DNA of 64,000 bases from Patescibacteria group bacterium (GCA_041645215.1 JBAZQK010000003.1:45723-109722), one strand, 5' to 3'; shown: positions 1,430 through 53,334, counted from the stretch's first letter. Made by a program: numbers and translations. Notes: a model not told the origin generated them from the sequence alone.

Positions 1430-3382
1430 TTATCTAACCACCACGCCCTTGCCCTGCGCCCCCAAATCATCGTCTAACTCGGTAGTAACAAATTTAGCGG
1501 TGGCAATTAAATCAGCGCCGGATACTGAATCACGAGCCGTGGCGGTGGTGGTTTTGGTCAGCACCAAAATTTTATCAGCATCGCTCTCCTCCGGCGTTAC
1601 CGCCAGCTCAAACCAAGCTTCGGGCTTGGTAAAAGTTATGCCCGCCCCGGCGGGCAAACGATTTAGCCGCCAACTAACCTCACGCGTGTTGGAATTATAA
1701 GTTACGGCTTGACCAGCCGAAACCGTCGTTTGCCCGGTCCAATTAACCCCCGCTGGCAAAGTGGCCGTTACTTCCATGTTTTCCAAATCATTAAGCGTAT
1801 TGCCCAACTGCCAGAATACGATGTAAGTAGTGGTTTGCCCAACCCGCGGCGGCAAAGGACCTGACCCCAGCTTAACCAACTGATCAGTATAATACCGGCC
1901 CTCAACCGCCAACGACATCAGCGAACTAAATTTGGTTTCTATTTGATTTGATTGCAGACTTATCGTTTGTAAATTGTTGTCAATCACCTGCTTAGCCTCG
2001 CCCGTCACTTGAGTCATAAAACTAACAGGTGATTTGGCTCCCCGCGGCAGACTAGTTACCGTATTAATTCGCCAAGTCAAAGTAACGCGCGATTTAGATT
2101 GAACGATTTTTAAAAATGGTACGGAGTCGCCCGACCAAGTAATCGTACCGGCGGTCTTATCCAACTGTCCGCCAAAATCGTCCCGCCAACTTGACCAATC
2201 TAAATAAACGGTTGACAACTGGACTTTAAGTTTAAAATCGCTGTAAGACAAATCGCCGTTATTAACAACGGCTAATTCGTATTTTATTTCCTGTCCGAGC
2301 GTCGCCTGACTTTTTAAACTGACATCATTAGCCGTCAGATTAAGACTTAATTGCGAACCTAATACCGCTACCTGCCAAACCTTTTCCTCTTGCACCGAAA
2401 ACACCTTATCGGTTCCGCCCCAAAAACCAATCGCCACACCGAGTGACTGGTCGCCAACCTGACTGGCTGAAGAAAATTTTCCTTTGAGTTCAAACTTGCC
2501 ATCGCCCTGCGGCTCAAGGTCTCTCAACCGCCAAACATTGTTTTGTCCACTTTCAGCCTCTAACGACGGCACTTCCAAATCAAAACCGCCGGGCAGATTA
2601 AGCCGCAACCGCAACCCGACTAACTTAGCCGTTGAACTATTATGATACTTAACCGCTAACGTAACCGGCTGATCAACCGCCACCTTAGCTAAGCCGGCCA
2701 AATCTAAATTAATGGCCGAGGCTACCAGCTTGGTGCTAAAACTTAAAGTTTTAGTAAATTGAGCTTTGATGTTGTTGGGCTCATAAACCACCAAAGCCGA
2801 AATTTTCTTATCGTCATTAAGGTCGCCAATCAGCTGACCGCGTATGGTTAATGCGCCAACTTGATTAGGACCAACGCCGGGAATAATAAAACGCGTTGTC
2901 TCCTGGTTGTCAGGCTGTAAACTGGCGTCCGCAAAAGTAAAACCGTCGGGATAACGTAAATTTATTTCAACCTGTTTTAAGCCAATCGCCTGATTATTGG
3001 CATAGGACAGGGTGTATTCCACCACCTGGCCAGACGGCAACTCGCTGGGCGCTGTTAATTTAAACTGCACGGCCTCTTCGCCAAACCTCGCCGGATTCCG
3101 CCCCAACCACAACCAACTGCCAATCGCGCCAATTATAAGAAAAACCAGTGCTGACATAATATAACCCCAACGACGGTGGCGGCGCGAACCGGCTATCAAT
3201 TTTGACAAATCAGCCACCGCCTGTTGGCGATAGATTTCATCCCATTTGGGTGTGGCGTTGGAATTAGTTAAATTATTAGATGACGACGGAGAATCGTCGG
3301 CATCATTGTAACTAATGGTAATATCATTAACTTGGCTTTTTTTCATACCCAGTATATCAACTTGGCTTAACCACCTCAGCAC
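1430..3382 (-). CDS. Large surface/cell-envelope protein with an N-terminal membrane anchor (about 640 aa)
   Basis: 650-aa ORF. The hydrophobic helix IMSALVFLIIGAIGSWLWL is followed by an extracytoplasmic region predicted to be beta-rich. The first 12 codons of the track ORF are encoded by the first unit of the upstream tandem repeat, so the real start is probably the internal ATG (MKKSQV) near 3346. Confidence 0.6.
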   Translation of the reverse strand: MLRWLSQVDILGMKKSQVNDITISYNDADDSPSSSNNLTNSNATPKWDEIYRQQAVADLSKLIAGSRRHRRWGYIMSALVFLIIGAIGSWLWLGRNPARFGEEAVQFKLTAPSELPSGQVVEYTLSYANNQAIGLKQVEINLRYPDGFTFADASLQPDNQETTRFIIPGVGPNQVGALTIRGQLIGDLNDDKKISALVVYEPNNIKAQFTKTLSFSTKLVASAINLDLAGLAKVAVDQPVTLAVKYHNSSTAKLVGLRLRLNLPGGFDLEVPSLEAESGQNNVWRLRDLEPQGDGKFELKGKFSSASQVGDQSLGVAIGFWGGTDKVFSVQEEKVWQVAVLGSQLSLNLTANDVSLKSQATLGQEIKYELAVVNNGDLSYSDFKLKVQLSTVYLDWSSWRDDFGGQLDKTAGTITWSGDSVPFLKIVQSKSRVTLTWRINTVTSLPRGAKSPVSFMTQVTGEAKQVIDNNLQTISLQSNQIETKFSSLMSLAVEGRYYTDQLVKLGSGPLPPRVGQTTTYIVFWQLGNTLNDLENMEVTATLPAGVNWTGQTTVSAGQAVTYNSNTREVSWRLNRLPAGAGITFTKPEAWFELAVTPEESDADKILVLTKTTTATARDSVSGADLIATAKFVTTELDDDLGAQGKGVVVR

Positions 3383-3998
3383 GAACGTGACTAGACAAGA
3401 ATAAATGATTAAATAATTTTAGATAAGACATAAAGTTATAATAGCTGGTGGTTAGGGCGAGTGCTAGCCAAGTTGTATTACTGGGCATACCCAGTATATC
3501 AACTTGGCTTAACCACCTCAGCACGAGCGTGACTAGACAAGAATAAATGATTAAATAATTTTAGATAAGACATAAAGTTATAATAGCTGGTGGTTAGGGC
3601 GAGTGCTAGCCAAGTTGTATTACTGGGCATACCCAGTATATCAACCCCGTAGAATCACGGCGGATACATCGATCAACCGTAATGTCCGGATTAATTGTAA
3701 GTAATTTGCGATTTTCATAAATATTGATTGTCCGCCGTAACTCTACGGGGTCAACTTGGCTTAACCACCTCAGCACGAGCGTGACTAGACAAGAATAAAT
3801 GATTAAATAATTTTAGATAAGACATAAAGTTATAATAGCTGGTGGTTAGGGCGAGCCCAGAACCAAGAGCTATATAGGAAGTACTGATATTATTGCTATC
3901 CATTATTGGTAAGTAATGTGTTCCCGTGGCGATGCGAGGGTACCGTGCTTGCTCTGGTGCTGGGCGAGTGCTAGCCAAGTTGTATTACTGGGCATACC
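3345..3998. repeat. Three tandem copies of a unit of about 135 bp (promoter/5' region of the surface-protein gene). The third copy carries two different insertions of about 105 bp.
   Basis: The unit is catacccagtatatcaacttggcttaaccacctcagcacga[a/g]cgtgactagacaag...ttgtattactgggc. The insertion at 3646-3750 has terminal inverted repeats ccccgtaga/tctacgggg and a tcaac target duplication. The insertion at 3856-3963 is flanked by the direct repeat gggcgag. Confidence 0.85.
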
Positions 3999-4005
3999 AA
4001 TTACA

Positions 4006-4842
4006 TTATAGTACACTCTTAAGGACTTTGAGAGCCCTTAGCTCCTGACCGGTCTGGCCGCGCAAATAATCAGTTAAAAAGACTAATCCGACATTGGGGA
4101 TAAATGGCGCCAAGTTGGCCGGTTGATAATAAAGCCTCCACGGGTTTATCCGGCCGGCGTCGCCACTTGGCGCATCATCCATCCGCCTTGAGCGGACAGT
4201 CTTTTGCGCCGGCGGATAAAGCTGGCTCAGCCACTCCCTAACTTCATTGGGCAATACCACGGTTGAATCGGCGGCGAGGGTGCATTCTTTATGTAAAAAA
4301 CCGTGTCGCGTCCAGCTAAAATTAATTTCACCGTTTAAAACTTGTCCGCAAATATCGCATTTATTCAGGTAAACCATCAAGCCGGTCAAATGTAAAACCT
4401 CAATTATAAATTGCATCAATTTAGTACGCGCTTGCTCGCGCCAGAATTTATCATTAATTGACAACAACGCGGCCAACTCACTTAGATAACTGTCCAACAA
4501 ATCAAATAACCTATAATCGGTCTGGCCGTCGCGAGTTAAAGTGTCAACTATTTCCAAAAAACTACTGGCCAATATAATGGTTGGTAAATGATAAGGCGGT
4601 TTTAAATACACTTTTCTGACATTGGCCGAGGCCAAACGATCAATCGTACGGCCGCGGGCCGCCATAATATCTATGGTCGCAAATGGTAACAAATGCGGCG
4701 CCAATTTAGAACCGATTTTTTGGCTGCCGGCCGCCACCGCCTTAAATTTGCCGTACTCGCGCGAATACACCGTGTACAATCGGTCATTATCACGATAAGA
4801 ACTAACGCGCAAAACAAAACCATGGGTTAAATAAGTGGACAT
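4006..4842 (-). CDS. recO: DNA repair protein RecO
   Basis: The N-terminal OB-fold region (GFVLRVSSYRDNDRLYTVYSREYGKF) and a C-terminal C4 zinc motif (CDICGQ...HKEC) are typical of RecO. The length is 278 aa. Confidence 0.7.
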   Translation of the reverse strand: MSTYLTHGFVLRVSSYRDNDRLYTVYSREYGKFKAVAAGSQKIGSKLAPHLLPFATIDIMAARGRTIDRLASANVRKVYLKPPYHLPTIILASSFLEIVDTLTRDGQTDYRLFDLLDSYLSELAALLSINDKFWREQARTKLMQFIIEVLHLTGLMVYLNKCDICGQVLNGEINFSWTRHGFLHKECTLAADSTVVLPNEVREWLSQLYPPAQKTVRSRRMDDAPSGDAGRINPWRLYYQPANLAPFIPNVGLVFLTDYLRGQTGQELRALKVLKSVL

Positions 4843-4845
4843 AAA

Positions 4846-5547
4846 TTATTTAAAAAAGCCGTGCATTACTTTGGTTTTATAGCCTTTTGTAAATTCATAA
4901 ATAATCGACCAGAACACTCCAACAGCAAAAGAAAACATCACTTCCTCAATAGGAACACCCCATAAATTCAAGCCTATAAAATTACGCAAAGTATAAAAAC
5001 TACTGATAAAAGTCGGAAAGAATAAATTAAAAAGTACAAAAAGGAAACTGTATATAATACAAAAAAATATGCCACTAAAAATCATTTGCTGTATTAAATC
5101 TCTGCGATAGAACGCCATCATCGTAGCACCAATTAACATAGAAACCGAAACATTGTAAATGGTTTTATTGGGATAAATAAATTCTAAAAATACATAAAAC
5201 AATGCAAATATAATTAAAGCTAAGTAATGTGGATAGCGACGATTAAATAATTGCCTCTTTAACTTTCGCTGTTCTATAAATTCAAATATTACCGAAGCTA
5301 AACCACCACCCAAAAATCCAAACACAAGATCCTCAATTGAAAAACCTACTTTATTAACAAGATTAAATATCGTCGGTGGCCTCCAATATTCAGGAACATA
5401 TAAAAAATCCGTTATGGCTAACAAGCTACCGATTATACCAGCCCAAATCATTTCCTTTCTCAGGTCCACTCGTCGAACGAATATTATAAGCCATGGCACC
5501 AAAAGCAGACCGCACCCAATAATATAGGCATATTGCATATTAAACAA
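4846..5547 (-). CDS. Polytopic membrane protein, possibly of the lycopene-cyclase-domain (CrtYcd-like) family
   Basis: About seven hydrophobic helices. PEYW and IEDL motifs resemble the PxE(E/D) motifs of lycopene-cyclase-domain proteins. It sits 5 bp from the geranylgeranyl-reductase-like gene. Confidence 0.4.
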   Translation of the reverse strand: MFNMQYAYIIGCGLLLVPWLIIFVRRVDLRKEMIWAGIIGSLLAITDFLYVPEYWRPPTIFNLVNKVGFSIEDLVFGFLGGGLASVIFEFIEQRKLKRQLFNRRYPHYLALIIFALFYVFLEFIYPNKTIYNVSVSMLIGATMMAFYRRDLIQQMIFSGIFFCIIYSFLFVLFNLFFPTFISSFYTLRNFIGLNLWGVPIEEVMFSFAVGVFWSIIYEFTKGYKTKVMHGFFK

Positions 5548-5552
5548 AAAAA

Positions 5553-6746
5553 TTAAAATGATAAATACTTGGCAAACAACAACGCCAATTTAGGATATTT
5601 ATATATTAATTCATAACGGTAGTTAAAAAATACCTCAAAAGCATCCGCTGGATCCACACTTTGAAATCTATACATCAACTTATCAAGATCCTCATCTGTA
5701 AATTTACGATAAAGCGCCTTACCAATACGATATGAAATATTCCATCGCCAACCAAACAAATTACGCCATTCGTTTTCATACTTTTGCTCTAAACTAACAA
5801 TATCGGTACTACTCTTCAATGCTTGATCAATACATTTTGCGGCTAATTGACTTGTTTTAAAAGCATGCCTAATACCTTCAAATGCTAAGGGATTAACTTG
5901 AGAAGCCGCATCTCCAATCATAATAATATTTTTATAGGCGTGATATTTAACACCGGGCGAAATAAAACCACCACCACCGTGAATTTCTATTGGCTCTAAA
6001 TGATTAGAGACATCAAATTTGCCCATAAAACTCCTAAGCAACTGCTTTAATTCAGTATTGTTTGGCAGTCTACCCCATGACCCGATGCCTATCTTACATG
6101 CCCGACTCTCCTCCATGGGAAATATCCAAGCATAGCCTTGTGGTGCTACCTTGCCAAAATACAAGGCTACTGTTTTTTCAAAACCACTCGGCATACCAGA
6201 CAATTGCAGTTCAAGGGCGCTAGCTAAATCATCAGATTGTGTTTGGTTTAACTTTAAAAAAGAATTAGCAAACCCCCAGTGCCCGGTGGCGTCCACAATA
6301 TATTTGGCTCGCAACTCACCTTCGCCAAATATGCCCTTATATTTTAGGCCAACGATATTACTGCCCTCTTTAATAAACTCCGTGGCCGCCGCTCCCACCA
6401 TCGTATCGGCACCGTGACGCGCCGCGTCTTCAGCCAAAAACTTTTTAAGCGCCGCAAAATCAAACACATAACCGCGCGTCTCGGGATAAGTCCATTCGGC
6501 CACTTCATGGGTGGAGGCAAAATAAATCCGATTCCAAGTGGCGGAAAGAACTTTGGCTGGTAAATCAAATTCCTCAATAGTTTCGCGCGGCGTACCAGCC
6601 GTGGAATAATTCGGCTGACCAATCTCCTGCGAATGTTCTAGTAAAATAACCTTTCTACCCGCCTTAGCCAACTCACGCGCGCACTGTCCGCCCGCCGGTC
6701 CGGCGCCGATGACTATAACGTCGTAAAGCTTATTATCATTGGTCAT
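5553..6746 (-). CDS. FAD-dependent oxidoreductase, geranylgeranyl reductase family
   Basis: N-terminal Rossmann FAD-binding motif YDVIVIGAGPAGGQCARELAKAGRKVILLE. Length (397 aa) and overall pattern match digeranylgeranylglycerophospholipid/geranylgeranyl reductases. Confidence 0.7.
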   Translation of the reverse strand: MTNDNKLYDVIVIGAGPAGGQCARELAKAGRKVILLEHSQEIGQPNYSTAGTPRETIEEFDLPAKVLSATWNRIYFASTHEVAEWTYPETRGYVFDFAALKKFLAEDAARHGADTMVGAAATEFIKEGSNIVGLKYKGIFGEGELRAKYIVDATGHWGFANSFLKLNQTQSDDLASALELQLSGMPSGFEKTVALYFGKVAPQGYAWIFPMEESRACKIGIGSWGRLPNNTELKQLLRSFMGKFDVSNHLEPIEIHGGGGFISPGVKYHAYKNIIMIGDAASQVNPLAFEGIRHAFKTSQLAAKCIDQALKSSTDIVSLEQKYENEWRNLFGWRWNISYRIGKALYRKFTDEDLDKLMYRFQSVDPADAFEVFFNYRYELIYKYPKLALLFAKYLSF

Positions 6747-7078
6747 ATTTTAGAACAAAATATTTACCTGTCAGTCTAAAGCCCCCTCGTCATTCTGAAC
6801 ACATTCGCTGTGCTCAGTGTAAACTCCGTGAAGAATCCAGATTCTTCCCTCACCCCGCCTGGCGGCGGGGTTCCTTCAGAATGACAATCTAAAATGAATT
6901 TTAAGACTAGTAGAACTTACGCGTTTGAGCCAAGTTCGAGGCAAAACCGAGCATTTGAGCGAGCCGTAGTAAAACTACGGTGAACGAAAAGCGGAGGGTT
7001 TAACGAAGAAATTGGCCAAAGCCGCTTGAGGGGTCGTCCCTGCGCCCGCCCTGCAAGCGGCAAGCGCGTAAGTCCTAA

Positions 7079-10000
7079 CTAGGATATTTCCACACTCACT
7101 GCCTCGCCTTCTATTTCCAGCTTGTTATCATACTCCTCTTGGCTGATATTAATTTCCTTAGACAAAGTGGATTTGAGTAAATTATCACGGTGATTAAAAA
7201 GTATGGCGGCTATTTTTTCAGTAGCTCCAACTTTCAACATAATCCGATCGTTAATCGTTAACCCCCGCTGCTTGCGCAAGGCATTTACCTGCCGCGAAAA
7301 TTCGCGTATTAAACCGAGCGCTTTTAGCTCATCATCAATTTCTGTATTTAAAACTACCGACAATTCCCCTGCTTCCTCGCAAACTACTTCTAATACATTT
7401 ATTTCATCGGCCAAAATTGCCTTCATTTCCTCGGCCAAAATCAAACCCTTCACGGTAACCACCCGCAAAGCCTGACGAACTTTTATTTTAGCTGCCGCCC
7501 GCTGAGCTAAAACCGTTTCTACTACTTGTCTTAGTTTTGACATCTTAATCAAAAGTTCTGGATCGTCATTATCGGCATACAAAGATGGCCATTCTGCTAA
7601 ATGCACCGACTCTAATTCTCCTCCAACCCGACGATAAATATGCTCTGACAAAAAAGGTACAAAAGGAGACATTATTTTTGATAAATTAAGTAAAACATGT
7701 CGTAAGGTATTTAGGGCTTCCATTTTTCTATTCTCTTGTTTAAATCTATCGCGGCTGCGGCGCACATACCAAACCGATAAATCAGTAATAAACTCCTCTA
7801 TCTTCCGTCCCGCTTCTGTCACCTTATAGTTTTCTAGATATTCTGTTACTTCGTCCAATAATTTATACCACATTGCCAATATCCACCTATCTAATACATG
7901 AGTAACTTGCGGCACTTGCCGTGTACCGTCGCTCGCCTTTGGGCGAGCGACTGGTACACGGTACAATTCATAAAACATCACCACATTCATTAAAATCAAA
8001 AATGTTTTTTTTACCACGGCCTCAACATCTTTGGGGTCAAAATTCTTAGGTTCGCCCGGCTGGCTAGCCGTATAAAAATAAAACCGCAAAGCATCAGTCC
8101 CGTATTGATTGATAATTTCCCAGGGGTCAATAATATTGCCCTTGGATTTAGACATTTTTTGGCCATATTTGTCGTTTATATGCCCCAAACAAATAACATT
8201 CCGGTAAGGCGGAATCTCGCCGATGGCGCCGGCTTTTTTAAGCAAAGTCGCCACCGCCAGCAGAGTGTAAAACCAACCGCGGGTTTGATCTATGGCTTCA
8301 GCAATAAATTCAGCCGGATAATGGTCTGGCAATTGCTGGGCGCTACCCGCAGTCGCCGGATAACCCCACTGGGCAAACGGCATACTGCCACTGTCAAACC
8401 AACAATCAGCCACCTCCGGCACGCGCCGCATTTCCCCGCCACACTTACAAGCCAAAACAATCTCGTCAACATAAGGCCGGTGCGGATCAAAATTTTGACT
8501 TTTTCCGCCAGCACGCCCTGCCAAAGACGAGGCTCCGCCGAATGGCGGGCCGAGGGAGGCGGATCCGCCTTGGGCGGAGATTTTTGACTTTTGACTTTCG
8601 TTGGCTAAATCAGACAACTCCTGAAAACTGCCAACGCATATCTGATTGCTGCAGTCTCCACATATCCATATGGGTAATGGCGTACCCCAATAGCGCTCGC
8701 GCGAAATGGCCCAATCTTTTACCCCGTCCAGCCATTCGCCAAACCGACCTTGCTTAATATGCTCGGGATACCAATTGATTATCTCGTTAGCCGCTTTTAA
8801 ATCCTCCCGCAAAGCTGACATTTTTATAAACCACGATAGTTTGGCATAATACAGAAGCGGCGTATCGCAACGCCAACAATAAGGATAATCATGAGTGTAC
8901 ATTTCTTGCTTAAACAACAAACCGCGCTCTTTTAAATCCTCCACGATTCCTTGCTCCACTTCTTTATCCTTAACAAACTTACCAGCCCATTTGGCAACAT
9001 CTTTGGTAAAATAACCATTCTCGTCAACCGTATGAAACTTGGGCAAGCCGACTTGACCGCCTAAATTAAAATCGTCCTCGCCGTACATTACGGCCGTGTG
9101 TACCACGCCGGTGCCATCCATAGTGGTGACGAAATCCGCGGCATACACGCGGTGTGATTTTTCGTTCTGGAGCGGTTTGATGTCGAATAACGGTTCATAT
9201 TCTAAACCAACTAACTCACTACCTCTCAATAGCCGTATGTTTTTAAATAAAACATTACCTTTCCCCTTAAAATTAGTACTACCCCATGTCAAATCATCTT
9301 CGTGTGGGTGAGGACTATAACCTAAAGTACTCTCAAAAACATTCGTAAATGCGGAACGGGCCAATATAAATACTTCACCTTTTTGTATATCAGAAACATC
9401 TGACGTTTCAACCTCTAACATTAGGTAATCAATATCAGCACCAATTGCGAGCGCTACATTCCCCGGTAAAGTCCAAGGTGTAGTCGTCCAAGACAAAATA
9501 TATGTATTATTTTCAATTTTGACTTTTTCCGCCAGCACGCCCCGCCAAAGGCGAGGCTCCGCCAGGTGGCGGGCCGAGGGAGGCGGATCCGCCTTGGGCG
9601 GAGACTTTTGACTTTTGACTTTGAACTTAATATAAACTGACGGTTCAGTAATTTCTTTATACCCTTGGGCCACTTCGTGGCTGGATAGGGCCGTACCGCA
9701 ACGCGGACAATGCGGCACCACTTTATAATCTTGGTACAACATTCTTTGCCAGCCCTCACCCGGACATTCATCACTGACTCTAAATTCATTCTCTGGCTCC
9801 ATGACTGGCTGACTGTCTGACTGGCTAACCCACGTACGCCAGATTTGCTTAAAAATCCACCACAAACTTTCAATGTAATAAGGCTGATAAGTAATATAGG
9901 GCTTTTCCAAATCCAGCCAATAGCCAATGCGTTCGGTTAATTTTTCCCACTCATTTTGATATTTCCAGACGGCGGCCTTGCATTTACTATTAAACTCCTC

Positions 10001-10318
10001 CACCCCGTACTGTTCTATGTCTGACTTGCCTTTAAACTTCAACTCTTTCTCAACCTGCAGTTCCACGGGTAACCCTTGGGTATCCCAACCGGCTTTACGG
10101 TCAACCTTAAATCCCCGCATGGTTTTGTAACGCGGAATTAAATCCTTAAACGCCCGCGCTAGCACGTGATGCAAGCCCGGCTTGCCATTGGCTGTCGGCG
10201 GCCCTTCAAAAAAAACAAACTTGCCCTGTGGGGCCGGCTTGGCCAGGGTCTTGGCAAAAATTTTATGTTCTTTCCAAGAAGCTAGGATTTTGTCCTCCAG
10301 TTCAGAAAACTTTATCAT
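7079..10318 (-). CDS. ileS: Isoleucyl-tRNA synthetase carrying two in-frame repeat-element insertions
   Basis: Class I aaRS HIGH-region (PPTANGKPGLHHVLARAFKD), KMSKS motif (KMSKSKGN), the CP1 editing motif TTTPWTLPGN and a C-terminal Zn-binding region. Two segments of about 35 aa (near 8493-8598 and 9517-9623) are encoded by a dispersed GC-rich repeat. Confidence 0.95.
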   Translation of the reverse strand: MIKFSELEDKILASWKEHKIFAKTLAKPAPQGKFVFFEGPPTANGKPGLHHVLARAFKDLIPRYKTMRGFKVDRKAGWDTQGLPVELQVEKELKFKGKSDIEQYGVEEFNSKCKAAVWKYQNEWEKLTERIGYWLDLEKPYITYQPYYIESLWWIFKQIWRTWVSQSDSQPVMEPENEFRVSDECPGEGWQRMLYQDYKVVPHCPRCGTALSSHEVAQGYKEITEPSVYIKFKVKSQKSPPKADPPPSARHLAEPRLWRGVLAEKVKIENNTYILSWTTTPWTLPGNVALAIGADIDYLMLEVETSDVSDIQKGEVFILARSAFTNVFESTLGYSPHPHEDDLTWGSTNFKGKGNVLFKNIRLLRGSELVGLEYEPLFDIKPLQNEKSHRVYAADFVTTMDGTGVVHTAVMYGEDDFNLGGQVGLPKFHTVDENGYFTKDVAKWAGKFVKDKEVEQGIVEDLKERGLLFKQEMYTHDYPYCWRCDTPLLYYAKLSWFIKMSALREDLKAANEIINWYPEHIKQGRFGEWLDGVKDWAISRERYWGTPLPIWICGDCSNQICVGSFQELSDLANESQKSKISAQGGSASLGPPFGGASSLAGRAGGKSQNFDPHRPYVDEIVLACKCGGEMRRVPEVADCWFDSGSMPFAQWGYPATAGSAQQLPDHYPAEFIAEAIDQTRGWFYTLLAVATLLKKAGAIGEIPPYRNVICLGHINDKYGQKMSKSKGNIIDPWEIINQYGTDALRFYFYTASQPGEPKNFDPKDVEAVVKKTFLILMNVVMFYELYRVPVARPKASDGTRQVPQVTHVLDRWILAMWYKLLDEVTEYLENYKVTEAGRKIEEFITDLSVWYVRRSRDRFKQENRKMEALNTLRHVLLNLSKIMSPFVPFLSEHIYRRVGGELESVHLAEWPSLYADNDDPELLIKMSKLRQVVETVLAQRAAAKIKVRQALRVVTVKGLILAEEMKAILADEINVLEVVCEEAGELSVVLNTEIDDELKALGLIREFSRQVNALRKQRGLTINDRIMLKVGATEKIAAILFNHRDNLLKSTLSKEINISQEEYDNKLEIEGEAVSVEIS

Positions 10319-15922: not shown

Positions 15923-16051
15923 ATGATTGTAACTAATGATTAGTAAATAGAATGTGTCATCCTGAAGCCGATGTCCATCGGCTTCAGGATGACAGGCTAT
16001 AATAATTTTTCACAAAGTTATGCGAATCCGCCGCGGCGGATGAGCTTTACA

Positions 16052-16440
16052 TGGTGGAGGTGACGGGGGTTACACCCGTGTCTAGTTAATTAAACCTAAA
16101 TTTGGCTCCAGGCTCAGTGCCCGCTAATTACCGACGCGCCAATCAAGCGGCACAAAAGTTGGCGTGCGGGTTGTCCTATAATTACTCGTCGCTATAAATA
16201 GGACAGCTTAACAGCGCGAGACTCGATAAATGACGTTCCGTATAAGTTATCGAGTGTCACTTAAGGGAACGGCTCTGACCAATATTAGGCCAAGGCTGGG
16301 GCAAAGCTCAATCCCGCCAAGGCGGAACGAACCTTGCTAACAAATGTATTAGCATTTGTGTAGGTGCAGCTTTTTTACGAAGACTGCGGCTTCGACCTGC
16401 TAAACTTAAGTTAAAGAACTATCGAATTATAAACACCCCC
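16052..16440 (-). ncRNA. ssrA: tmRNA (SsrA)
   Basis: Located by eye next to smpB. The 5' end is GGGGGUG... followed by a UUCGAU motif. The 3' end reads GGGUGUAACCCCCGUCACCUCCACCA, a T-arm plus acceptor with an encoded CCA. The 7-bp acceptor stem GGGGGUG/CACCUCC includes a G3:U70 wobble, the alanine identity element. An internal ORF ends ...AGLSFAPALA-UAA and may be the tag. Length is about 389 nt. Confidence 0.7.
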
Positions 16441-16942: not shown

Positions 16943-16958
16943 AAATAATTCCTACTTT

Positions 16959-16994
16959 CATCTGCTTCGCTGCTCGCGAGCAGCGAAGCAGATG
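16959..16994. terminator. Perfect 36-bp palindrome (stem-loop) just 3' of the 17008-17526 gene
   Basis: catctgcttcgctgctcgcgagcagcgaagcagatg. An almost identical copy lies on the other side of the same gene at 17588-17623. Confidence 0.5.
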
Positions 16995-17007
16995 AAATGC
17001 TAATTTA

Positions 17008-17526: not shown

Positions 17527-17587
17527 AAATTCACTGATTAATACTATTAACTAGCCCTTCTATTATACCCCGCCCGCCCTTAATATT

Positions 17588-17623
17588 CAACTGCTTCGCT
17601 GCTCGCGAGCAGCGAAGCAGTTG
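17588..17623. promoter_or_regulatory. Second copy of the perfect palindrome, upstream of the 17008-17526 gene
   Basis: caactgcttcgctgctcgcgagcagcgaagcagttg. This could be an operator or a bidirectional terminator. Confidence 0.45.
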
Positions 17624-17662
17624 ATAAATAGAAATAGGATAAAAGGATAACTACTATTAATA

Positions 17663-18440: not shown

Positions 18441-18566
18441 ATAAAAACCGGACGTAAAATTTGAAAACACAAAATAATTCCGACAAATTTGCTACCCTCT
18501 GGCCCTTATGGTTGGAGGGAATTTTATTACCCAGAGAAAAAACATTTAACTAACGCTCGTCACCTA

Positions 18567-18603
18567 CGGGGATTTTTGTCCAGCTGGACAAAAATCCCTG
18601 TAG
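18567..18603. terminator. Long perfect palindrome between convergent genes
   Basis: tacggggatttttgtccagctggacaaaaatccctgtag is a 15-bp perfect stem with no loop. It lies between the 17940-18440 (+) and 18720-19166 (-) genes. Confidence 0.4.
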
Positions 18604-32483: not shown

Positions 32484-32999
32484 TTTTTACTGGATGTTAG
32501 GTTTAAACTAACTTCCAGTACTATTTTATACTGTAATCCAAATAAACACAAGGGTTAAGAGGTAAAAAATTTGCTCTTTATTTACCCTTGAAATCGCCAA
32601 ACCATCCTGATATAGTTAGCTAAGTGAAGCTCCACAACCTCATCCAGCCTTCGTTCGCCTTGGGAGGACTACGGCGGAGTAGGCCGGCCGTAATGTCATG
32701 GGATACGTGGGTCAACTAACCGGAACGTTTTTAAAATACAAATAAGACCCAGCTAAGTAGCTGGGTCTTATTTTATGAAACTCCCGACCGCATCCCGCTA
32801 AACGGGACGAAGGCTGGAAGCTACGGGGTATGCAGACAAAGGAGGATAAAAAATTAATCCTCTTGGCGGGCTCGATCCCGCCGCGGCGGAACGATCTTTA
32901 CCCCGTAGTGAGCTGTGCTCTACTACGGGGTTCTCCGTGACCCCGCCTAACTAGCTGGCGCTAGTATTACGGGGCAAGCCGGGAGACTTATATTCAGTG

Positions 33000-34028: not shown

Positions 34029-34209
34029 AAATACAAATCAAAATGCAAATATCAAAAATCAAAATTACATTTACACTTTTCGTGCCCGAGGCAGATCCGC
34101 CTTGGGCGGAGATTTTTAAATTTTAAACTGTATTTATATTCTACATCATTTAACCCAAATAAAAAATCCGCCCGGCTGGATAGTGGGACCGACTTTGACT
34201 GCCAACTAT

Positions 34210-34818: not shown

Positions 34819-34912
34819 AGCTTTTAATTATGAAACTCCCTCCCGCTGTCCGCCGGCCGGCGGACAGCGGGTCAGAATGACAGCTTATGGGTCAAACGCG
34901 AAAGTCCTAAAA

Positions 34913-40739: not shown

Positions 40740-41840
40740 CTAAGGACAAGTTTCGCTAATATTACCTTTGAGAATTGAACACTGCGAAAAAATCGTATAA
40801 TCAAAAACATCAGACGACGGGGCGAACTGCGGCACGGTAATAGACAAGGCCTGACGCGTATCAGCTTGCTGACCCGTAGTTGAAATTGTGATACGGGCGG
40901 GCAAAGCATACACACTGCCGTTACCATCAGTCTCGCTGTAAGCAGTTAACTGCAAATTACAAATACCGCCGTATAAAGCTTTTAACCGCAAACGGTAATT
41001 GACATAATTCGGCTGGCCCACGTTATTGATATTAATAATGACGGCTTGACCGGGACTGGCGGCAATTTGACTGTGATTAATATAACGCCGCTGAACGTCA
41101 AAATCCGACGCCGCTCCGCCCCACGATGACCAGGATAGTTCCAACCACTCCTGTCCTTGATTAACACAGGCGGTTGCGGTTGGATCCCAACTTATTTTTA
41201 ATGATTTTGCCTTTGGACTGTCGTCCAGTGAAGCGGCGGGGTCAAACAAATCAATTTGTTTAACTTCGTCCGGTTTTAAAGTAGTTATAAGAGTTGATTG
41301 GGTTTCCTGGCTGTCGCGCCACCACTGCCCTTGACTGCTAATCAAACTGACCGGGCTGGATGAGGAAACCGTCAACTGACTGCCCTTTAACCCTTCCTGT
41401 CGCCATAAATACAAACCCTGCTCCAAACCGCTTTCGGCGGCATAATAAGCCACCACTGCCCGATCGGCCGAAGTTGTAAGGCGCAACTGGCGCATGACCA
41501 AACTGCCGACTGTCAAACTGGTAACCAAAATCGTCGCCAAAGCCAACAACGCCAATAGCAATACCATCCCCTGATTATCACCCTTCGCCCCCAATACCCT
41601 GCGGTCTCCAGGCCGCAAAGGATGAATGGCGAGGATGATGGGGCTGTAGTTTTTCCGCCAAAGGCGAATCAGCCACCCTCGGCCTGCCATTCGGCGGAGC
41701 CTCGCCTTTGGCGGGGCGTGCTGGCTGAAGCGGGACGAGGGGAGTAGGTAAAAAAGGCTACGGGTGATGAATCCTAAAATAGAGGATACCCGGTGGTCTT
41801 GCCACCGGGAGAATTCATTTTTTTCTCTTGTATAAAACAT
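40740..41840 (-). CDS. PilX-like minor pilin/pilus-associated protein. The real start is probably the internal ATG (MVLLLALLAL) near 41570.
   Basis: A hydrophobic N-terminal helix is followed by a PilX_N-like motif (AVVAYYAAESGLEQGLY). The N-terminal 90 codons of the track ORF are read through a copy of the GC-rich dispersed repeat at 41610-41765. Confidence 0.55.
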   Translation of the reverse strand: MFYTREKNEFSRWQDHRVSSILGFITRSLFYLLPSSRFSQHAPPKARLRRMAGRGWLIRLWRKNYSPIILAIHPLRPGDRRVLGAKGDNQGMVLLLALLALATILVTSLTVGSLVMRQLRLTTSADRAVVAYYAAESGLEQGLYLWRQEGLKGSQLTVSSSSPVSLISSQGQWWRDSQETQSTLITTLKPDEVKQIDLFDPAASLDDSPKAKSLKISWDPTATACVNQGQEWLELSWSSWGGAASDFDVQRRYINHSQIAASPGQAVIININNVGQPNYVNYRLRLKALYGGICNLQLTAYSETDGNGSVYALPARITISTTGQQADTRQALSITVPQFAPSSDVFDYTIFSQCSILKGNISETCP

Positions 41841-49852: not shown

Positions 49853-52800
49853 CTATCGTTGATAGTTAGATCCTACCAACTCAATTCTAAATATAACCGC
49901 AGTGTCATTATTCGATACCGACCATTGTAGTTTACCCTCGATAGCAGTCGGTAAATTTGCGGTAAGATTCGTAGCCGCCGAAAGTGCTCCACCGTTTTTC
50001 CTCCAATAATAATCTACACTTGTTGTCCCGTTTACCACAAAAATTAAATCAAGGAACTCAGAGCCAGCTAGCGTTGTAAGAGATGCCGACGCATTTTCTG
50101 TCGTTCCATCTGCTTGAGTTGCATAAAGATTAACTACCCCGCCACTTTTGATAATCTTGAAGCCAATATGAGCATCTGTATAAGTATGTCCACTACCATT
50201 AACCGTTGGTTGTCCAATTCCGAAGAAAGTCGATGCCGCTCCATTCGAAGCATCAATTGCGGCGGCATTAACAAGAACTGAATATATTGGACTACCTGCG
50301 AATAATTTTGCGTTTGTAGTCTGAAAATTAACTCGTATACTTTGAGAACTTGTAATCGTAGCACCGGTGTTGACTGAAACTCCATATGAGCCAAATGATG
50401 TAGTACCACTGCCAACACTGACAAGCTCAAATCGTGCAGAAGTCGAAAACTCCGTTGAAAACGCTGTTTTTGATACAGGAACTTGGCTCACAAAATTCGT
50501 CCCATCAGAAGTAAGCACATTGCCGGAGGTGCCGGCGGTGGCGGGATAGGTGGCGGTGGACCAAGTCGGGGCGGCTGAAGCGCCGGAACGCAAAATTTGT
50601 CCGGCTGTAGCTGTGCCCGATAATATAGCGCCGGCTGAAGCGGTGGAATATAAAATTCCGCCATTAGAAGCGGTTAAGTTTGCGCCCGTGCCACCTTGAG
50701 CTAAGGTTATTAAAGCATTAGATGTTAAGATAGTAGCAGCAGCATCAGGGAAAGTGTAAACTCTGGCTACTGTCGGGCCTGCGGCAGTAAAGAACGCTAT
50801 ACCTGTTCCACCATTAGCAGTTGGTAATATTCCAGTTACCTTTGCCGCAAGGTCAATAGTTCCAGCCGCAATCATTGCATTGGTAACTTTTAAAGCTCCG
50901 ATAGCGGTGGTTATAGCACCGGTTCCTGTTCCTGAAACATCTCCAGATAATGTTATAGTTTGGTCGCCTGTATTTGTGCCAGAGTTTGTGCCTGTAATGT
51001 CAGAAGTGAATGCTAGTGTTCCAGCGGCATCTTTTAAGGTGTAAATTCTATCGGCTGTATTGGTATTTACAAAATATCCATCAAAAGTATTGGCAACATT
51101 TCTTAATTTCATGGTTGTATTTAAGAAAGTTTTGATACCAGAGTTTGTTTGGGCAGAAGCTAATACCATATCGCCTACACCTTTGGCATTAAGTTGAGTT
51201 TGGATAGCTGAAGTTACACCTTTGACATAGGAAAGTTCGGTAAGAGATGGGTAAGTAGCTGTTGCGAGAGAACCAAGAGTATTTGCCCCAGACCAATAAG
51301 TCAGTTCGTTTATAGTTCCTGTTCCAACTGATGTTAAATAAGTTGAATTATCAAATGAAATTACTGTTCCATTGCCTTTTAAGAAACCCGTTCCATTGGT
51401 CGTAGAAGCGGTTGTGATGTTGTCTAAAGTTAATGCCCTGTCGGGGAGTGTATAAATTCTATCAGCAGTATTTGTATTTACAAAATAACCATCAAAAGTA
51501 TTGGCAACATTTCTTAATTTCATTGTCGTATTTAAGAAAGTTTTGATACCAGAGTTTGTTTGGGCAGATGCAAGAACCATATCACCTACACCTTTAGCGT
51601 TTATTTGAGTTTGTATCGCTGAAGTTACTCCCGCTACATAATTTAATTCTGTGCCTGTAGCAGTCATTGAAATTGCTCCAATGGTGAATGGTGTAGGTAT
51701 AATGACTGTGCCGGTAAAAGTAGGAGAAGCCAAAGGTGCGTAAGCTGTGGTATCAATAGATAATGTTCCAATTCCGCCACCTGTTTTTACAAAACCATTA
51801 GTCGTAAGGTTAGAAAGTGCAGTAATGTTTTGCGAAGTATTGACTGTAATGGTATTTACTGAACGAGTAAGACCAGTTGAAAAAGTTAAAGGCACTTCAT
51901 AAGCACTTGAAGCGGTATAAGCAGCTGTGCCTAATGTTCCACCAGTTCCGATGTTTAGAGTTGATGCATCTGTTCCCGCCAGAGTGAGAGTATTGGAAAT
52001 GGTTAATGTTTTGCCAGCCGTGACTGCCAGTCCGGTGACGGTGGCGGCATTGCCAGTGGTAGAGCCAGACGAACCAGTTACATTGCCAGTCACATTACCG
52101 GTGAGTGGACCAGAAAAGCCGGTAGCGGTTAAAAGTCCAGTGGCAGGATTGAATGACAGTTTGGTAGTAGAAACTTTAGCCGCGTAATTACCGCCAGCCG
52201 TGGCTGTCCACAAAGGATACATGGTGGCGGCGGTAGTGATATCGTCAGCATTATTCACCGGTACAGTTATAGCGCCCGAACCATCAAAATTAACCCCATT
52301 GATGGCTCTGGTGGTGGTTAAAGTCGCCGCGCTGCCAGTCGTGTTCTGGTTTAAGGTTGGGAAATCTCCAGCCACGGCGATTGTCAAAGCGCCGGTAGTA
52401 GTGGTTGATTTTAAAATACCAGTAGCGAGCGCGGAAGTTCCAGCTGAATAATCCGTTCCAGCCGTAGCGGCCGAAAAGGCCGATGCACCATTACCCTTGA
52501 TTAGTCCAGTCAGGGTGGACACGCCTGTGCCGCCATAAGCAACCCCCACCACATTACCTTGCCAAGTAGAGCCGGTGGACAGGGTTTTATTGAGCAAGGT
52601 TTCGGTACCAGCTAAAGTAGCCAAGGTGCCAGAGGTGGGTAAAATCAGGCTGGTGTTAGCCGTAGTCGTAAAGAATAAGGTATTAGCCGCAGTGGCCAAA
52701 GGCACTAGGCCGCTGTTATCCTGCAGGGTGATAGTTCGGCTGGCTGTGGGGTCGGTTACGCCCAAAGTGGTTTTGTTGGTATCAATGGTGGTGCCGTCAA

Positions 52801-52951
52801 AGGTCAGGGTAAGGTTGCCTTGGGAATTAATATTAAAGCTGGAAAAAGTCAATTCTGCCAAGGCATACTGGGAAGTAATAGCCAAAGACAAGATTATAGC
52901 TAAACCAACGGCGCTTTGGCGCCAATATCTAAACAGTTTAAACTTGGTCAT
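49853..52951 (-). CDS. Large (1032 aa) Thr/Gly/Ala-rich repetitive surface protein with a signal peptide and an internal near-identical duplication
   Basis: N-terminal signal/anchor (LAIILSLAITSQYALA) and T/G/A/S/N-rich repeats. A segment of about 55 aa (KGVGDMVLASAQTNSGIKTFLNTTMKLRNVANTFDGYFVNTNTADRIYTL) occurs twice. The corresponding DNA at about 51080-51230 and 51490-51640 is nearly identical. It resembles a phage tail-fibre or adhesin. Confidence 0.6.
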   Translation of the reverse strand: MTKFKLFRYWRQSAVGLAIILSLAITSQYALAELTFSSFNINSQGNLTLTFDGTTIDTNKTTLGVTDPTASRTITLQDNSGLVPLATAANTLFFTTTANTSLILPTSGTLATLAGTETLLNKTLSTGSTWQGNVVGVAYGGTGVSTLTGLIKGNGASAFSAATAGTDYSAGTSALATGILKSTTTTGALTIAVAGDFPTLNQNTTGSAATLTTTRAINGVNFDGSGAITVPVNNADDITTAATMYPLWTATAGGNYAAKVSTTKLSFNPATGLLTATGFSGPLTGNVTGNVTGSSGSTTGNAATVTGLAVTAGKTLTISNTLTLAGTDASTLNIGTGGTLGTAAYTASSAYEVPLTFSTGLTRSVNTITVNTSQNITALSNLTTNGFVKTGGGIGTLSIDTTAYAPLASPTFTGTVIIPTPFTIGAISMTATGTELNYVAGVTSAIQTQINAKGVGDMVLASAQTNSGIKTFLNTTMKLRNVANTFDGYFVNTNTADRIYTLPDRALTLDNITTASTTNGTGFLKGNGTVISFDNSTYLTSVGTGTINELTYWSGANTLGSLATATYPSLTELSYVKGVTSAIQTQLNAKGVGDMVLASAQTNSGIKTFLNTTMKLRNVANTFDGYFVNTNTADRIYTLKDAAGTLAFTSDITGTNSGTNTGDQTITLSGDVSGTGTGAITTAIGALKVTNAMIAAGTIDLAAKVTGILPTANGGTGIAFFTAAGPTVARVYTFPDAAATILTSNALITLAQGGTGANLTASNGGILYSTASAGAILSGTATAGQILRSGASAAPTWSTATYPATAGTSGNVLTSDGTNFVSQVPVSKTAFSTEFSTSARFELVSVGSGTTSFGSYGVSVNTGATITSSQSIRVNFQTTNAKLFAGSPIYSVLVNAAAIDASNGAASTFFGIGQPTVNGSGHTYTDAHIGFKIIKSGGVVNLYATQADGTTENASASLTTLAGSEFLDLIFVVNGTTSVDYYWRKNGGALSAATNLTANLPTAIEGKLQWSVSNNDTAVIFRIELVGSNYQR

Positions 52952-53334
52952 ATAATCAACAAGTTAATGATTAATAACTAAAGTCTATATCAAAGAGTAG
53001 CATAATTACCTTAATAAATTCAAGCACCTTGACCCGCCAACGGCGGTGGCTTGTCCCGCTTCAGCCAGCACGCCCCGCCGATTCGGCGGGGTATTTTGGC
53101 GAAAGGTGATAAACGCGTAAGTCCTATATAAGCAAAGAACAAGCCCTTTTTAGGAGGACTTGTTCTCTAAATTAAATCAGTATAGGACCTACGCACTTCG
53201 TCATCCTGAACTCGATTCAGGATCTCTATCAAGGACTAATGTTAGCCAAGGTTAGATTCTGATCCGCCAGTGGCGGACAGAATGACGGCTGCAAAAATAC
53301 CACATTCTGTGTCAAGTGCGTAAATCCTACAGTA

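Follow-up and report, generated by a model that had tools for sequence, protein, structure and literature searches.

The question addressed here is what fills the spacer between recO and a conserved gene for a DUF11-repeat protein in a Patescibacteria group bacterium (GCA_041645215.1). Both genes lie on the minus strand of a 64,000-nucleotide stretch of DNA (JBAZQK010000003.1:45723-109722), hereafter called the window, and they are parted by 655 bp that hold three head-to-tail repeats with a period of 142 bp. An initial annotation of the window took these repeats for amplified copies of the promoter and first codons of a surface-protein gene. Our analysis points to a different answer, namely that the spacer is most likely a nest of non-autonomous transposable elements resembling MITEs (miniature transposable elements bounded by inverted repeats), situated at a start-codon hotspot. 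The locus is one case of a MITE-like family whose members abut start codons in a locked orientation and which is widespread among groundwater bacteria of the Candidate Phyla Radiation (CPR).

The repeat array and its dispersed relatives

Repeat finding and BLAST comparison within the window both identify three copies of the unit. Tandem Repeats Finder reports a period of 142 nt, 2.1 copies and 99% matches with a score of 597, which is far above chance. The three copies originally annotated are thus located where they were placed, while the period of about 135 bp assigned to them is replaced by 142 nt. Read on the gene strand (the minus strand, on which the three units are placed), each repeat consists of a 138-nt element followed by the sequence TATG, such that 142 = 138 + 4.

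Closest to the downstream gene is unit A (3344-3485 including its TATG; element 3348-3485, 138 nt), whose 5′ and 3′ terminal inverted repeats (TIRs) are CCCAGTAATACAACTTGGCT and AGCCAAGTTGATATACTGGG, respectively. These TIRs are 20 nt long and complementary at 17 of 20 positions. Unit B (3486-3627; element 3490-3627) is a second 138-nt copy, and the RecO-proximal unit C has an element of 361 nt (3632-3992) that holds two insertions, its own segments being 3628-3645 (TATG included), 3751-3855 and 3962-3992. Adjacent units have one TATG in common, at 3486-3489 for B and A and at 3628-3631 for C and B. The outer, left-hand TATG lies at 3993-3996, 9 nt past the stop codon of recO (4006-4842, minus strand), whose product has RecO_N and RecO_C domains. 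Units A and B differ by a single base (T/C at element position 101), and unit C, after removal of both insertions and of one copy of each associated duplication, is identical to unit B.

The right-hand TATG of unit A (3344-3347) contains the start codon, ATG 3346-3344, of the downstream gene (1430-3346, minus strand), which encodes a protein of 638 aa that has a membrane anchor at its N terminus and contains repeats of the DUF11 type. A listing of open reading frames (ORFs) begins this gene at GTG 3382, but the ATG is the conserved start, as it is in the orthologs of two related contigs (L038 and L040). The unit gives the gene only the ATG within TATG, and not the first codons of an ORF spanning 1430-3382 as the initial annotation had it. 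Likewise, a palindrome described as 14 bp and present three times is in fact 18 nt long (TACTGGGCATACCCAGTA, with 7-nt arms and a 4-nt spacer), and only the copies at 3479 and 3621 are complete, that at 3986 being a half-copy. The palindrome represents the junction of two element ends around a shared TATG. The two ends of the array have the microhomology GGTATG in common. Either strand of unit A is predicted to fold into a long hairpin (z-scores of -5.3 and -4.4). Rfam returned nothing at gathering threshold in the window, and with E values up to 10 in the interval 3200-4100 it returned chance-level microRNA matches only.

Evidence that the unit is a member of a dispersed family came from a scan for its end motif in species-representative genomes, which was then extended by a scan of metagenomes. 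A Kerfeldbacteria metagenome-assembled genome (MAG; JACRFM01) carries 11 elements on four contigs, and these fall into two related types: type A, of ~140-160 nt and 77-89% identical to the window unit, and type B, of ~255 nt. About 11 further elements are present in groundwater metagenome contigs, where nearly invariant 20-nt ends enclose unrelated interiors. Other copies in the species of the window are found with pyrG and the L27 gene in contig L001 and, probably, with murI in contig L037.

Copies of 138-159 nt are bordered by matched 4-bp flanks that differ by locus, with TATG being found at most sites and ATGA, TTGA, TTTA and CTTG at others; two or three copies have degenerate flanks. Because these flanks are equal on both sides yet different between loci, they are target-site duplications (TSDs). 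The 138-nt unit displays several features by which MITEs are recognized, namely small size, lack of a conserved ORF, TIRs, TSDs, dispersed copies, and an empty site or polymorphism.

Pairing between the two TIRs is also conserved. Across 19 copies, 94.4% of cells pair and four pairs show compensatory changes, values that were reached by none of 500 shuffles. Mismatches of the G-T and A-C kind are equally rare in the TIR stem (3 versus 5, with no strand bias), and for this reason TIR symmetry looks like a constraint at the DNA level rather than the result of selection on one RNA strand. A strand-specific RNA structure was rejected on the same wobble counts.

The dispersed copies bear directly on the possibility that a native promoter or 5′ region was duplicated in tandem and resized by slippage, acting as a copy-number-dependent expression or phase switch for a surface protein. 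Such a process would be in keeping with the 99-100% identity of the units, with the occurrence of one, two or three copies among near-identical contigs, and with the GGTATG microhomology at the array ends. However, a unit with the same TIR and TSD organization also precedes pyrG, murI, ribosomal-protein genes and other genes, including those of other genomes, and the junction is empty in L040, where the ortholog is 48% identical and the recO stop codon TAG is followed by 10 nt and then the ATG, with a single TATG. Units A and B are without insertion 2 though the resident copy already had it, and no on/off mechanism is visible.

The nature of the downstream gene points the same way. Its product combines an N-terminal membrane segment with DUF11/NPCBM-associated repeats and may plausibly reside at the cell surface, but it is conserved at ~635 aa, single-copy and syntenic with recO in contigs of the Kerfeld-, Veblen- and Buchananbacteria type. 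The gene is part of the conserved core and does not encode a variable antigen, and the suggested phase variation is without a mechanism in our data. The dispersed copies before unrelated genes, together with the empty site in L040, go most of the way to refuting in-place promoter amplification as a complete account. We regard it as very improbable, and keep unequal recombination only as a secondary process.

The flanking duplications likewise decide against integron-like attC sites or other site-specific recombination sites, to which the elements bear some outward resemblance. Their size of 138-143 nt, their conserved complementary ends with a variable center, their fixed orientation and their position between consecutive genes are all reminiscent of attC, and sequences close to the two complementary core sites, ATACAAC and GTTGATA, can be found in the TIRs. 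Nevertheless, duplicated 4-mer flanks of variable sequence are not a product of integron recombination, the RYYYAAC/GTTRRRY consensus is not matched, and the genes that are parted are syntenic core housekeeping genes (rpoA-rplQ-rplM, infA-rpmJ, recO-DUF11) rather than cassettes. No integrase turned up, although none was systematically searched for. On the strength of the variable matched TSDs we rejected the attC model, whose probability we take to be close to nil.

Nested insertions and strain variation at the recO junction

Unit C carries two second-order elements. Insertion 1 (3646-3750) is 105 nt long and is located in the 3′ TIR of the unit, where it is flanked by the TSD TCAAC at 3641-3645 and 3751-3755. 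Its length and its TSD agree with the initial annotation; the inverted repeats, given there as 9 bp, extend over ~19-21 nt with 90% complementarity. The insertion is present in the window and, with 100% identity, in L036, a contig from a strain at 98-99% identity, and it is precisely missing from L001, L003 and L004. Insertion 1, which has TIRs at its ends and a TSD of 5 bp, shows the behavior of a discrete insertion. It resembles a MITE in its TIRs, its TSD and its presence/absence polymorphism, but not in copy number, since multiple copies were not seen in the DNA examined.

Insertion 2 (3856-3961) lies in the 5′ arm of unit C. The boundaries previously recognized, with GGGCGAG on either side (3849-3855 and 3962-3968), hold, and the length is 106 nt rather than about 108 bp. 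Its TIR is 11 nt long and imperfect, reading GCCCAG[A/C]ACCA. L036 as well as units A and B show an empty site with a single GGGCGAG, and the insertion is present in L001, L003 and L004. It also occupies the same place in L038, at ~90-96% identity, in a species whose ortholog is 67% identical. Because it is common to species with orthologs so far diverged, insertion 2 is old, and not a recent event in the third copy.

Elements with the ends of insertion 2 and other interiors occur at the same CTCGCC target inside the type-B elements of L006, L038 and L001. Judging from this shared target and these shared ends, insertion 2 belongs to a family of second-order elements, and its TIRs, flanking duplication, empty site and related copies elsewhere are those of a MITE. 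The recurrence of the inserted elements is a divided matter, with same-end relatives of insertion 2 found elsewhere and a second locus for insertion 1 not found in ~100 kb of the species' genome. Nesting reaches a third level in the form of GC-rich hairpins of 21-33 nt (CCCG...CGGGCAGGC). These reside within insertion 2 in L004 (114-146) and L003 (151-183), and within type-A copies in L006 (5934-5954), L013 and L038 (1600-1620).

The same junction differs among relatives. In L038, a type-B element comes first and a type-A element with insertion 2 comes second. The Kerfeldbacteria MAG contig L039 (JACRFN010000124.1; ortholog 55% identical) has one element of another subfamily with co-varied ends, which is inserted in the ATGA stop/start overlap of recO and the DUF11 gene (631-663). 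The recO frame there runs seven codons into the inverted repeat of the element before reaching a TAA stop codon.

Variation extends to near-identical contigs from other samples, which were recovered by exact-protein look-ups. At the recO junction, L004 has one unit and L003 two, as compared with three in the window, and the proximal unit of L003 shares the single-nucleotide polymorphism (SNP) of unit A. In L001 (6851-7108; ENA ERZ27249422 k141_646632), a chimeric unit directly joins recO to pyrG, a gene that is not in the window. The 5′ half of this chimera matches unit C of the window exactly, insertion 2 among the rest, whereas the 3′ half belongs to a different subtype. The join is the result either of recombination between dispersed copies, by which the genome would have been rearranged, or of an assembly mis-join; the only other pyrG contig retrieved (L041) begins 1 nt before the pyrG ATG. 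The proposal that the array is a hotspot for recombination is supported by the differing unit numbers and by the RecO-pyrG chimera. With one to three copies, and with nested insertions that are present or absent, the elements are also practical strain markers.

An error in the number of units, caused by collapse or expansion of the 142-bp repeat during assembly, has to be considered as well. The repeat period is similar to the short-read length or the k-mer used, and public assemblies do break at the elements: L002 ends at a 5′ TIR, L041 starts 1 nt before the ATG of pyrG, L036 starts inside insertion 1, and L003 starts inside an element like insertion 2. On the other hand, L003 is an independent contig with two units that include the same A-type SNP, the units of the window are anchored by a SNP and two unique insertions, and neither the existence of the element nor its nature hinges on exactly how many units there are. 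We consider a miscounted array unlikely. The elements are nevertheless a likely cause of contig breaks, and possibly of mis-joins, in CPR metagenome assemblies.

A further difference was noted between L036 and the window in the interval that separates recO from the IleRS gene. These two genes are 98-99% identical, but the region between them (L036 1083-2446; window 4843-6910) is shorter in L036 and only 74% identical, and it holds genes for a lycopene-cyclase-domain protein and a geranylgeranyl-reductase-like protein. Judging from this drop in identity, local replacement or transfer is the likely cause.

Position at start codons and candidate expression signals

At 16 of 22 catalogued sites, the 3′ end of the element is 0-1 nt from the ATG of an ORF, a proportion that becomes 14 of 20 if the three orthologous junctions of recO and the DUF11 gene are counted as one. 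The right-hand TSD at these 16 sites (TATG or ATGA) includes the start codon, and every one of the 16 elements is in sense orientation, facing the gene. The genes abutted in this manner are rplQ, rplM, rplX, rpmJ, pyrG, a glutamate-racemase type gene, recO, recG, yceG, a UPF0102 gene, a DHH phosphoesterase gene, the DUF11 gene and two unnamed ORFs. Where Pfam domains were matched in these ORFs, they begin at residues 1-12, which supports the assignment of the abutted ATGs as true starts.

Five copies do not abut a start codon. Three of these are located 22 nt before the L27 gene, 40 nt before an S18 gene and 5 nt before an FtsX-like gene, and of the other two, one is found in a non-genic stretch and one between ychF and rpsF, where its orientation is reversed. 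By way of comparison, only 34 of the 129 TATG sites outside long ORFs in the window are gene starts. Since the sequence of the TSD is not fixed, a plain preference for one sequence does not account for the bias toward start codons. Behind it stands targeting of regions, or selection, or the two together.

Some genes are preceded by heterologous tandems in which two elements share a TATG, the order being A-B in the case of rplQ and B-A in those of rplM, rplX and the DUF11 gene. Duplication cannot yield such pairs, and successive insertions are therefore their only possible origin.

A ribosomal-protein gene cluster in L006 (JACRFM010000081.1) is occupied by type A and type B elements at 3205-3460, 5912-6325 and 6684-7096. 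They lie at infA/rpmJ, rpoA/rplQ and rplQ/rplM in a cluster that is normally compact, and each is fused to the downstream ATG. The arrangement rpoA-TAA-ACT-ATG-rplQ indicates cistrons that were once tightly coupled and are now parted by elements.

The gene-facing end of the element has a sequence that might serve in expression. The motif TGATATACT (3351-3359, minus strand) in the 3′ TIR of unit A, which is repeated in B and C, is followed by GGG and is a near-perfect match to the extended -10 consensus TGnTATAAT, with its hexamer ending 3-4 nt before the ATG. It is on these grounds a putative promoter element. The combination TGATATACT-GGG occurs only in the gene-facing TIR, its mirror in the 5′ TIR reading TATTAC or TATATC, and this asymmetry, seen in every subfamily, fits the orientation rule.

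The genome is poor in Shine-Dalgarno sequences, with a motif of this kind before 6 of 46 long ORFs and a TATG start in 34 of 46 (gene starts surveyed include 10318, 13040, 38388, 42461 and 48233). Several genes, such as those for IleRS and ArgRS, have a TATAAT- or TATACT-like box (TANNNT) 6-8 nt before the ATG. The scarcity of Shine-Dalgarno motifs, the TATG starts and the distance of these -10-like boxes suggest that leaderless mRNAs are common in this organism. Outside the array, a TATAAT at 4010-4005 (minus strand) overlaps the recO stop codon 9 nt before the outer TATG. It is a candidate for the native promoter of the downstream gene, and the same arrangement of TATAAT, 9 nt and ATG is present in L038. 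A scan for sigma-70 promoters and terminators gave one promoter-like site, as compared with 3.3 expected.

Each unit in the window also has a 43-codon ORF that begins at its TATG and ends in a TGA, with 10 nt left to the next ATG. Translational coupling by way of an ORF in the element was rejected as a general mechanism, with such an ORF being present in only 5 of 15 copies.

These observations raise the possibility that the elements are functional cis modules of the host, for example a leader, a processing hairpin of the RNase III type or a promoter that is portable, which are selected before housekeeping genes and whose mobility is secondary or extinct. The elements are conserved at 92-100% where flanking coding DNA is at 72-77%, the Kerfeld-type subfamily shows strong conservation of its AT-rich core, all 16 abutting copies are in the sense orientation, and the TGATATACT-GGG motif is confined to the gene-facing TIR. 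The predicted hairpin is stable, as the z-scores given above indicate. Moreover, coupled cistrons have been parted (rpoA/rplQ in L006 and the ATGA overlap in L039), and some expression signal must therefore be supplied.

Other properties argue against a cis module of this kind. Conserved ends with unrelated subfamily interiors are the pattern of a transposon, and the variable matched TSDs prove insertion events. Among the expected signs of a regulatory RNA or promoter, there is no Rfam match, wobble pairs in the stem show no strand preference, the -10-like hexamer lies 3-4 nt and not 6-8 nt from the ATG, the promoter scan does not exceed the shuffled expectation, and the bridging ORF occurs in only 5 of 15 copies. 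We think it doubtful that this is the better description, but it is not exclusive of the MITE explanation, with which it is compatible, and a host-level role of the elements is a live possibility.

A more far-reaching idea is that the family homes to the transcription or translation starts of housekeeping genes in CPR bacteria, whose mRNAs appear mostly to lack Shine-Dalgarno sequences and in many cases to be leaderless, and replaces native 5′ control with its own signals, which would be the TGATATACT-GGG motif of the 3′ TIR and the conserved core. We put it forward tentatively, as something that may be so but that we do not favor. The 0-1-nt precision and the strict orientation could come about if the transposase recognized start sites directly, for example through melted DNA at the open complexes of RNA polymerase, or if only those insertions survived that place the end of the element exactly at the ATG. 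If the idea is true, cells would rely on a mobile element to express essential genes (rplQ, rplM, rplX, rpmJ, pyrG, murI, recO and others). The family is a concrete case in which it can be tested how mobile DNA is tolerated, or put to use, by the tiny and gene-dense genomes of CPR bacteria, its elements being lodged between closely packed essential genes, ribosomal-protein operons included, and restoring the start codon by way of the duplicated target. Should the gene-facing end drive or shape expression, the element would constitute a natural portable expression cassette for organisms whose signals for transcription and translation have barely been studied.

Proposed history, known repeat systems and other repeats of the window

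The interpretation of the array as a nest of MITE-like elements allows a history to be proposed. A 138-nt element inserted at the T|ATG of the start codon and generated a 4-bp TSD. The gene remains intact because the right-hand TATG restores its ATG. The regenerated TATG can serve as a target once more, and the heterologous tandems of related genomes show that arrays do grow by re-insertion; once two copies are present, unequal recombination or slippage between the 142-bp repeats could also enlarge or shrink an array. Re-insertion together with unequal recombination or slippage would account for strains with one, two or three units. The array of the window may itself have begun by insertion or by microhomology duplication, to be resized later by unequal recombination.

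The oldest, RecO-proximal unit would then have been struck by two second-order elements, with insertion 2 entering a CTCGCC(C) target in the 5′ arm and insertion 1 entering GTTGA in the 3′ TIR. The latter event probably immobilizes unit C. A trans-acting transposase of the DDE type is the presumed source of the 4-bp staggered cuts. Strict orientation and spacing of 0-1 nt may arise from selection for expression signals in the 3′ part of the element, for which the outward TGATATACT-GGG of the 3′ TIR and the conserved AT-rich core are candidates, or from targeting of gene starts by the transposase.

Several observations weigh against this account. Outside the array, the 64-kb window has no copy of the unit, of insertion 1 or of insertion 2, and insertion 1 has no second locus in the window or in any retrieved locus (~100 kb of the species' genome). 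No transposase or autonomous element with these ends was encountered, TIR pairs 0.45-4 kb apart are absent from the retrieved loci except for adjacent small elements, and a scan of viral contigs for an autonomous element was empty; the proteins of the window and public collections were not searched for transposases. Units A and B are without the old insertion 2, a state that requires precise loss, gene conversion or a donor copy not seen.

Units A, B and C are 99-100% identical, as compared with 90-92% for dispersed copies, and this far greater likeness indicates that local duplication or gene conversion contributed to the array. Between the window and L038, parts of the element are 92-100% identical and the flanking genes 72-77% at the nucleotide level. 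Conservation above that of the neighboring genes hints at a host-level function or at recent transfer and not at purely selfish decay. A leaderless start driven by the TATACT of the 3′ TIR is a hypothesis that in its simple form misfits the spacing, which is 3-4 nt where 6-8 nt is seen at other genes, too short a distance if transcription is to begin canonically at the A. Finally, the number of units in the window is that of the assembled sequence.

Comparison with known intergenic repeats places the element apart from each of them. The Correia elements of Neisseria (CREE/NEMIS) are non-coding sequences of ~100-155 bp with long TIRs that are present in many copies, often 5′ of genes. Their ends can create outward promoters, their transcribed hairpin is a substrate of RNase III, and their insertions are polymorphic among strains (PMC2649163; PMC3184786). 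The CPR element is similar in size, TIRs, gene-5′ position and strain polymorphism, but its TSD is a variable 4-bp sequence whereas that of Correia elements is TA, and it falls outside that group. Strict sense orientation and direct abutment of the ATG are likewise traits of the CPR element and not of Correia elements, and its hosts are CPR bacteria. The Correia TIR is presumably unrelated to that of the CPR element.

The REP2 (CREN) repeats of Neisseria and the IR repeats of Borrelia are found directly upstream of ORFs, oriented with the gene, and include the ATG and expression signals (PMC3184786). Unlike the CPR element, which has 20-nt TIRs and TSDs and lacks a Shine-Dalgarno sequence, REP2 possesses a ribosome-binding site but is devoid of TIRs. 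Moreover, the start ATG is part of the repeat itself in REP2 but derives from the duplicated target in the CPR element. Mycobacterial repeats of the MIRU-VNTR type are similar in being intercistronic tandem repeats of strain-variable number with short bridging ORFs, although a bridging ORF is present in only 5 of 15 copies of the CPR element. MIRUs, as Supply et al. are said to have described them in 1997, measure 46-101 bp and have neither TIRs nor TSDs. The CPR element belongs to none of these three groups.

Derivatives of IS200/IS605 elements (PATEs) lack TIRs and TSDs, have subterminal hairpins and insert 3′ of a fixed tetra- or pentanucleotide; the true TIRs and duplicated variable flanks of the CPR element led us to reject this assignment. 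As a lead only, a mobilizing element of the IS1380/piggyBac type, with ends that begin with CC(C) and a TSD of 4-5 bp, may be suggested in view of the CCC at the ends of the CPR element and its 4-bp TSD. Precise excision by such a system would explain the clean empty sites, but the CPR targets are not TTAA. In other bacteria, MITEs are small non-autonomous elements with TIRs and TSDs that nest in one another and alter the expression of their neighbors (PMC3184786, PMC6382973). The literature searched contains no MITE family whose TSD regenerates a start codon at most sites, and no report of MITEs in CPR bacteria (Patescibacteria).

Repeats of other kinds are present elsewhere in the window. 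The IleRS gene (7079-10318, minus strand) carries a 108-nt GC-rich palindromic repeat that is inserted in frame twice, at 8491-8598 and 9515-9622. The two copies are 94% identical and are read in different frames, giving two distinct peptides of ~36 aa, and one of the inserts corresponds to a gap of ~30 aa in the ortholog of L040. Another ORF and spacers hold further copies of the palindromic repeat, at 41654-41729, 34088-34124 and 53050-53079, and the AlaRS of the Kerfeldbacteria MAG (L006) includes a peptide that is similar. The repeats in IleRS resemble the Rickettsia palindromic elements that are found in coding regions.

Spacers also contain perfect or near-perfect palindromes of 30-42 nt, at 15955-15994, 16956-16997, 17587-17624, 18564-18603, 32740-32773 and 34842-34871. 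Several of these surround the tmRNA gene (16052-16440), and the one at 16956 has sequence in common with the one at 17587. The palindromes could represent terminators or else a further family of small repeats. A 182-nt direct repeat (51039-51220 and 51450-51631, 89.6% identical) is located in an ORF of 1032 aa (49853-52951) and is probably an internal repeat of the encoded protein.

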